A DNA stretch of 3,201 nt from the NCBI RefSeq assembly GCF_003334315.1, contig NZ_QOWR01000105.1. One strand, written 5' to 3'. Shown here piece by piece: positions 1 through 319 of the stretch (its first letter is position 1; every line of letters begins with the position of its first letter). The translations under genes were made by a program, and so were the position numbers. Under the pieces are notes generated by a model. It worked only from the letters and a program-made list of their open reading frames with translations, made no database searches and was not told where the DNA came from. The DNA is from Escherichia coli. GTDB lineage: Bacteria > Pseudomonadota > Gammaproteobacteria > Enterobacterales > Enterobacteriaceae.

Positions 1-149
1 GGTTGAGAAGCGGTGTAAGTGAACTGCAGTTGCCATGTTTTACGGCAGTGAGAGCAGAGATAGCGCTGATGTCCGGCGGTGCTTTTGCCGTTACGCACCA
101 CCCCGTCAGTAGCTGAACAGGAGGGACAGCTGATAGAAACAGAAGCCAC
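1..149 (-). CDS. insA: IS1 InsA (zinc-finger DNA-binding transposition regulator), N-terminal 49 codons; 3-prime part off-window
   Basis: GTG start at 147-149 (minus strand). Translation is [49 protein letters not shown]..., with the CxxC...CxxC motif typical of InsA. The frame is open to the window edge. Confidence 0.85.
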
Positions 150-181
150 TGGAGCACCTCAAAAACACCATCATACACTAA

Positions 182-204
182 ATCAGTAAGTTGGCATCAT
201 CACC
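182..204 (-). repeat. IS1 left terminal inverted repeat (IRL, about 23 bp), inner end of the left IS1 copy
   Basis: Reverse complement is GGTGATGATGCCAACTTACTGAT, an imperfect inverted match to the IRR at 2749-2771 (GGTAATGACTCCAACTTATTGAT). Confidence 0.85.
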
Positions 205-284
205 CACGATTGTAAACAAAGCACCAATACCAAAACCAACGCCGGAAGAAAATAAAATATCTTTCACTAATTAACCTTTATCAT

Positions 285-311
285 AAAAGCAGCTCTGAAG
301 AGCAGAGCCGC
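285..311 (-). terminator. Putative Rho-independent terminator just downstream of xapB
   Basis: The minus-strand RNA would fold as GCGGCUCUG-cucuu-CAGAGCUGC (9-bp stem with one G-U pair, 5-nt loop) followed by UUUUAU, starting about 9 nt after the xapB stop codon. The U-tract is short. Confidence 0.45.
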
Positions 312-319
312 GAATCCTT

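Follow-up and report, generated by a model that had tools for sequence, protein, structure and literature searches.

IS1 splits the small gene xapX between a frameshifted xapB and the K-12 position of xapR in an Escherichia coli xap locus

One of the closest described systems to the locus considered here is the xapABR regulon of Escherichia coli K-12. In that strain XapR, together with xanthosine, activates xapAB, XapB acts as the positive-feedback element of the xanthosine switch, and xapR forms a separate operon that is apparently constitutive and not autoregulated (PMC7205307). The intergenic region between xapA and yfeN houses the XapR-dependent xapA promoter (literature including PMC7205307), and genomic SELEX has placed a binding peak of the RpoN holoenzyme between xapB and xapR (PMC8743547). 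The window, by which we mean the whole 3,201-bp stretch of E. coli DNA that was analysed, is identical to this regulon in xapA, in the promoter region and in gene order, whereas its xapB is frameshifted, its xapX is interrupted and its xapR lies outside the view.

IS1 is about 768 bp in full length, and a simple insertion of it is flanked by a target-site duplication of 9 bp (8-10 bp). In a composite transposon of the Tn9 type, direct repeats of IS1 surround a cargo gene. The window resembles Tn9 in that two direct IS1 copies flank a 2,544-bp cargo with one intact gene, xapA; it differs in that searches of plasmids, metagenomes and complete E. coli genomes gave no second copy of its IS1-bounded segment and no sign of transposition as a unit, the outer flanks lying beyond the window. 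In the same 2.8-kb neighbourhood the same element is inserted in xapR in NCTC11023 and OY754409 and, in ECZP248, between xapA and yfeN. The orientation of IS1 in NCTC11023 is that seen in the window, and 9-bp duplications are present in these strains where both ends are visible, whereas the insertion point in the window, in xapX at 3500|3501 of the K-12 locus, differs from the positions in NCTC11023, OY754409 and ECZP248. A further relative is AP021914.1 (L016), in which, as in the window, IS1 stands at the xapR side and in the 5' part of yfeN, bounding the same interval. There an IS1-bounded resistance region (1074-9996) takes the place of xapX-xapB-xapA, with xapR on one side and yfeN on the other, and encodes CAT, DHFR, a Tn3-family transposase, a resolvase and an integrase, whereas the window keeps the native genes between its IS1 copies.

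The features of the window are as follows, both IS1 arms having been compared with a full 768-bp annotated IS1.

1 to 204, minus strand: left IS1 copy, IRL-proximal 204 bp (IS1 nucleotides 1-204), matching the full IS1 at 203 of 204 positions.
178 to 267, minus strand: fusion open reading frame of 29 codons, 21 from xapX and 8 encoded by IS1 (GDDANLLI), followed by a stop (open reading frame list and translation).
205 to 267, minus strand: xapX (DUF1427/TIGR03510), codons 1-21, 100% identical to residues 1-21 of K-12 XapX.
289 to 311, minus strand: terminator-like hairpin just 3' of xapB, retained (consensus scan of the window and K-12, a pattern match only).
320 to 1572, minus strand: xapB pseudogene with a 4-bp deletion (alignment to K-12).
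1632 to 2465, minus strand: intact xapA (xanthosine phosphorylase), an open reading frame of 277 aa whose DNA is identical to K-12.
2466 to 2713, no strand assigned: divergent xapA-yfeN intergenic region, with no difference from K-12.
2714 to 2748, plus strand: first 35 nucleotides of yfeN (Tsx/OmpK-family outer-membrane channel), reading into IS1 as an 18-codon open reading frame.
2749 to 3201, minus strand: right IS1 copy, IRR-proximal 453 bp (IS1 nucleotides 316-768), matching the full IS1 at 450 of 453 positions.

A previous sequence-only reading of this stretch stated that xapR follows xapB in K-12 on the same strand and a few hundred base pairs away, which proved correct, the gap between the xapB stop and the xapR ATG being 251 bp (3365-3615 of the K-12 locus). 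The coordinates it gave for the left edge also hold: the IRL of IS1 ends at 204, the xapB stop is at 320-322 and 115 bp lie between them. When these 115 bp (205-319) were compared with K-12, as that reading had proposed, they were found to be free of mismatches and to lie directly downstream of xapB in the reference. Its placing of IS1 in the xapB-xapR interval was right as to position, with 115 bp separating the element from xapB on one side and 136 bp separating it from the K-12 xapR ATG on the other, and wrong in treating the interval as an empty spacer, since the gene xapX is located there. K-12 xapX occupies 3405-3563 of the locus and is annotated by PGAP as a DUF1427 family protein, and the left IS1 splits its 52 codons between codons 21 and 22. 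Intact K-12 XapX scores 64.2 bits on the NCBIfam model TIGR03510 ('XapX'), for which the curated cutoff is 27.8 bits; the 29-aa remnant in the window scores 17.3 bits, under the cutoff, and is not assigned to the family by this test. The window carries a fragment of an XapX family member, identical over residues 1-21, and the left IS1 has destroyed xapX. XapX is a hydrophobic protein of 52 aa, and its gene shows a plausible ribosome-binding site, AAGG. The literature searched yielded no publication on what XapX does, and xapX is a conserved, unstudied small membrane-protein gene inside what had been supposed to be the xapB-xapR spacer.

The same reading had reported that xapR is missing from the window, and this is borne out by searches with XapR (tblastn) and with the K-12 DNA on the xapR side (blastn), neither of which gave a significant match in it. 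The window stops 204 bp into a 768-bp IS1, so xapR would be invisible even if it were intact, and the lack of it in the window is no guide to the genome.

The outermost IRL base of the left IS1 is 204, and the edge of the window cuts this copy, leaving 204 of 768 bp inside. The 5' part of insA runs from 149 down to 3 and translates to InsA residues 1-49. Perfect (100%) matches to the left arm are common across E. coli genomes, and a consensus scan placed a promoter-like site at 197-170, on the IRL region. The terminal inverted repeats of IS1 were confirmed, with the IRL, GGTGATG.TGCCAACTTACTGAT, ending at 204 and the IRR, GGTAATGACTCCAACTTATTGAT, starting at 2749. The IRL of the window differs by a single base from GGTGATGCTGCC, which we take to be the usual IRL sequence; the variant in the window is common in E. 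coli, and the difference is therefore uninformative. The right IS1 starts at 2749, not 2751, runs in the same direction as the left copy and is also cut by the edge of the window. It carries the 3' part of insB at 2764-3141, its junction corresponds to position 6048 of the K-12 locus, and it interrupts yfeN past codon 11. Reading frames of both insA and insB' are recognisable, InsA 1-49 in the left arm and a 125-aa part of InsB in the right arm, and an InsB product of the right-arm type carries PF03400 in related loci. The arms within the window are 204 bp and 453 bp long, and each shows one end of IS1. Taken alone, the window would also be compatible, though this is improbable, with a collapsed repeat, with a tandem amplification or with a circle in which the two arms belong to a single IS1.

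Between the two IS1 copies (205-2748) the window differs from K-12 by one SNP, at 1477, and by the 4-bp deletion in xapB, and by nothing else. The deletion removes CTAT on the gene strand (nucleotides 897-900 of xapB) and falls between window positions 676 and 677. As a result xapB is split into an open reading frame of 313 aa (631-1572), of which 299 are native residues of the 418, and another of 109 aa (320-649). The same allele is present in 96 of 5,426 complete E. coli genomes, PGAP labels it 'frameshifted', and its product of 313 aa occurs in 1102 blocks of a large assembly collection; because of these three lines of evidence we regard the deletion, on comparative grounds, as a genuine allele of the lineage rather than an error of sequencing. 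With respect to what a functional xapABR system would contain, xapA and its promoter region are intact and identical to K-12, and an intact 418-aa XapB transporter was not found. With XapB truncated at 299 of 418 residues, the xanthosine system would be impaired whatever the state of xapR; in this sense the operon appears to be already defective through the xapB frameshift, independently of xapR, and poor use of xanthosine is predicted for the strain irrespective of what has become of that gene. The frameshift weighs more on xanthosine use than the left IS1 does, and since XapB was already truncated, the left IS1 is a further step in the decay of a dispensable locus and not its primary lesion.

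The 2,544-bp unique segment between the IS1 copies has exact counterparts (100% identity) in eight E. coli genomes (loci L003, L004, L006, L007 and L009-L012), all of which have the frameshifted xapB followed by a 52-aa xapX and then a 294-aa xapR. Judged from these relatives, a frameshifted xapB with intact xapX and xapR is the ancestral arrangement. Because the segment is identical to genomes in which xapX and xapR are intact, both IS1 insertions are recent, and because the ancestral state has the frameshifted xapB, they landed after the loss of the transporter. The window thus belongs to an E. coli lineage with a frameshifted xapB, in which two IS1 copies of the same orientation landed later. 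A Shigella origin, prompted by the density of IS1, was considered and is needless, the segment being 100% identical to ordinary E. coli with the same xapB allele.

The left junction was absent from the 5,426 complete E. coli genomes, from GTDB species representatives and from JGI metagenome contigs, and the right junction was absent from the complete E. coli genomes and the JGI metagenomes. Exact look-ups of the 60-aa open reading frame across the right junction, of a predicted 250-aa YfeN remnant and of 32-aa and 30-aa XapX remnants gave no entry. A YfeN remnant of 222 aa has been recorded, only in lineages with IS1 at other positions. The exact junction is thus new to the collections searched, while the type of event is well known.

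Every IS1 in the loci that were fetched was mapped onto K-12 coordinates, in a sample that is biased, the loci having been fetched through truncated gene products. The interval xapR-xapX-xapB-xapA-yfeN (3308-6107 of the K-12 locus) contains at least 10 distinct IS1 positions (L002, L005, L008, L014 and L016-L023), several of which fall in the first ~100 bp of yfeN. Four are simple insertions with 9-bp duplications, two in xapR (NCTC11023 and OY754409), one in xapA (L005) and one between xapA and yfeN (ECZP248). At about five of the nine fully visible IS1 copies in this biased sample the flanks do not match, which indicates deletions or rearrangements: yfeN 5' DNA has been lost in L005, the xapA promoter and yfeN 5' DNA have been lost in L008, and yfeN is joined to an unrelated region in L014. 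Simple insertion and deletion or rearrangement are both common at this locus. The IS1 sites are more AT-rich than the locus as a whole (0.40 versus a locus mean of 0.47), a purely descriptive figure given the biased sample. At position 6072 IS1 occurs in either orientation, in different genomes (L018 and L020).

What lies beyond the left IS1 can be approached from these comparisons. We consider it probable that the left IS1 is a simple insertion and that xapR is still present, because the eight genomes identical in the unique segment keep both xapX and xapR and because four insertions at the locus carry 9-bp duplications. If so, IS1 would place 768 bp between xapAB and the far side, with its transposase genes pointing as xapR does, and the far side would consist of the 9-bp duplication CACGATTGT and the remainder of xapX, with xapR intact after it. 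On the plus strand, the IRR end of the left IS1 would then be preceded by ...GGAATAGGCAAGCGCACGATTGT, a K-12-like xapX 3' sequence with CACGATTGT. By the same logic the right IS1 would continue beyond 3201 to its IRL, followed by (A)CTTTCCTC and the rest of yfeN. The main competitor, possible though clearly less likely, is that the left IS1 is the breakpoint of an IS1-mediated deletion or rearrangement which has removed or relocated the rest of xapX together with xapR, so that xapA would be uninducible. Non-matching IS1 flanks are frequent at this locus elsewhere (L005, L008, L014, L016), and many strains with this xapB allele have at least 40 IS1 pieces per record, which offers many partners for recombination; against it, the window bears no direct sign of such an event, and it has to be set beside the same eight genomes, all of which retain xapX and xapR, and the same four simple insertions.

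Two further explanations concern the joining of the IS1 ends to the segment itself. The structure IS1-[xapX'-xapB(fs)-xapA-yfeN']-IS1 could be a Tn9-like composite transposon that has been copied into a different site or replicon, a tandemly amplified unit or a circle of 3.3 kb with one IS1 serving as both arms; under any of these, xapR would not be the left neighbour. The direct orientation of the IS1 copies, as in Tn9, fits this idea, as do the two arms, which do not overlap (IS1 nucleotides 1-204 and 316-768), and the combined length of one IS1 and the segment, which at 3,312 bp is near that of the window. We nevertheless think such a mobile or amplified unit improbable, as no plasmid has the segment between IS1 copies, neither junction was met in any other collection searched, and it is simpler to suppose that IS1 inserted twice, independently, in a genome rich in this element. 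Least credible of all is an assembly artefact, in which a misjoin induced by the repeat would have put IS1 ends beside the segment. High-copy IS1 does break short-read assemblies, and neither junction is in other public records, but both junctions are base-exact IS1 termini set against uninterrupted K-12-like sequence, and real independent insertions within tens of base pairs are known in complete genomes.

Under a simple insertion, the effect on xapR would depend on where its promoter lies. The sequence-only reading had argued that regulation of the operon is compromised either way, whether IS1 sits in the spacer or xapR has been deleted; this does not follow, as xapR would still be expressed, unaffected by the insertion, if its promoter lay in the 136 bp next to it on the far side of IS1. 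A promoter upstream of xapX or within its 5' part, serving a xapX-xapR operon, would be severed from xapR by IS1. A consensus scan found no terminator-like hairpin between xapX and xapR, so that a transcript covering both genes is possible. No start site or promoter position for xapR was found in the accessible literature, the primary papers lying outside that. No sigma-54 GG/GC core motif was found in a motif scan of the K-12 xapB-xapR spacer. Weak sigma-70-like motifs flank the IS1 insertion point on either side, and no conclusion was drawn from this consensus scan. The best motif on the xapR side, ATGATA-17-TATTAT, is located 16-44 bp before the ATG and would put the transcription start at or within the Shine-Dalgarno sequence, and another weak site ends 5 nucleotides before the insertion point. 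It is possible that xapR has been uncoupled from its promoter by IS1, as had been suggested.

A more speculative proposal, which we think has only a slim chance of being right, is that xapX and xapR form one unit with a promoter upstream of xapX or within its 5' part, that the IS1 insertion is a natural regulatory knock-out of XapR, and that the repeated IS1 hits together with the xapB frameshift reflect selection against xanthosine catabolism. If this were true, the independent IS1 hits in xapR, xapX, xapA, the xapA promoter and yfeN across E. coli would not be merely those of an AT-rich hot spot.

As it stands, the window is a case of ordinary IS-driven gene decay, and it has little importance outside this strain. 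The fitting annotation for it is xapX::IS1, a frameshifted xapB pseudogene and yfeN::IS1, rather than a locus in which xapR has been replaced by IS1. The interval from xapR to yfeN, which has been hit repeatedly by IS1 in natural E. coli, is a handy site for the study of IS1 target choice and of IS-driven decay of a locus.

Mobilisation of the segment by a plasmid was also considered and rejected, the 'plasmid' matches being either chromosome-sized or error-rich pieces of chromosome. In one of them, a 50-kb PLSDB 'plasmid' (NZ_CP098226.1), the xap region is present at 91% identity beside fragmented pieces of gltX, and this record appears to be an error-rich piece of chromosome filed under plasmids rather than a xap locus that has been mobilised.
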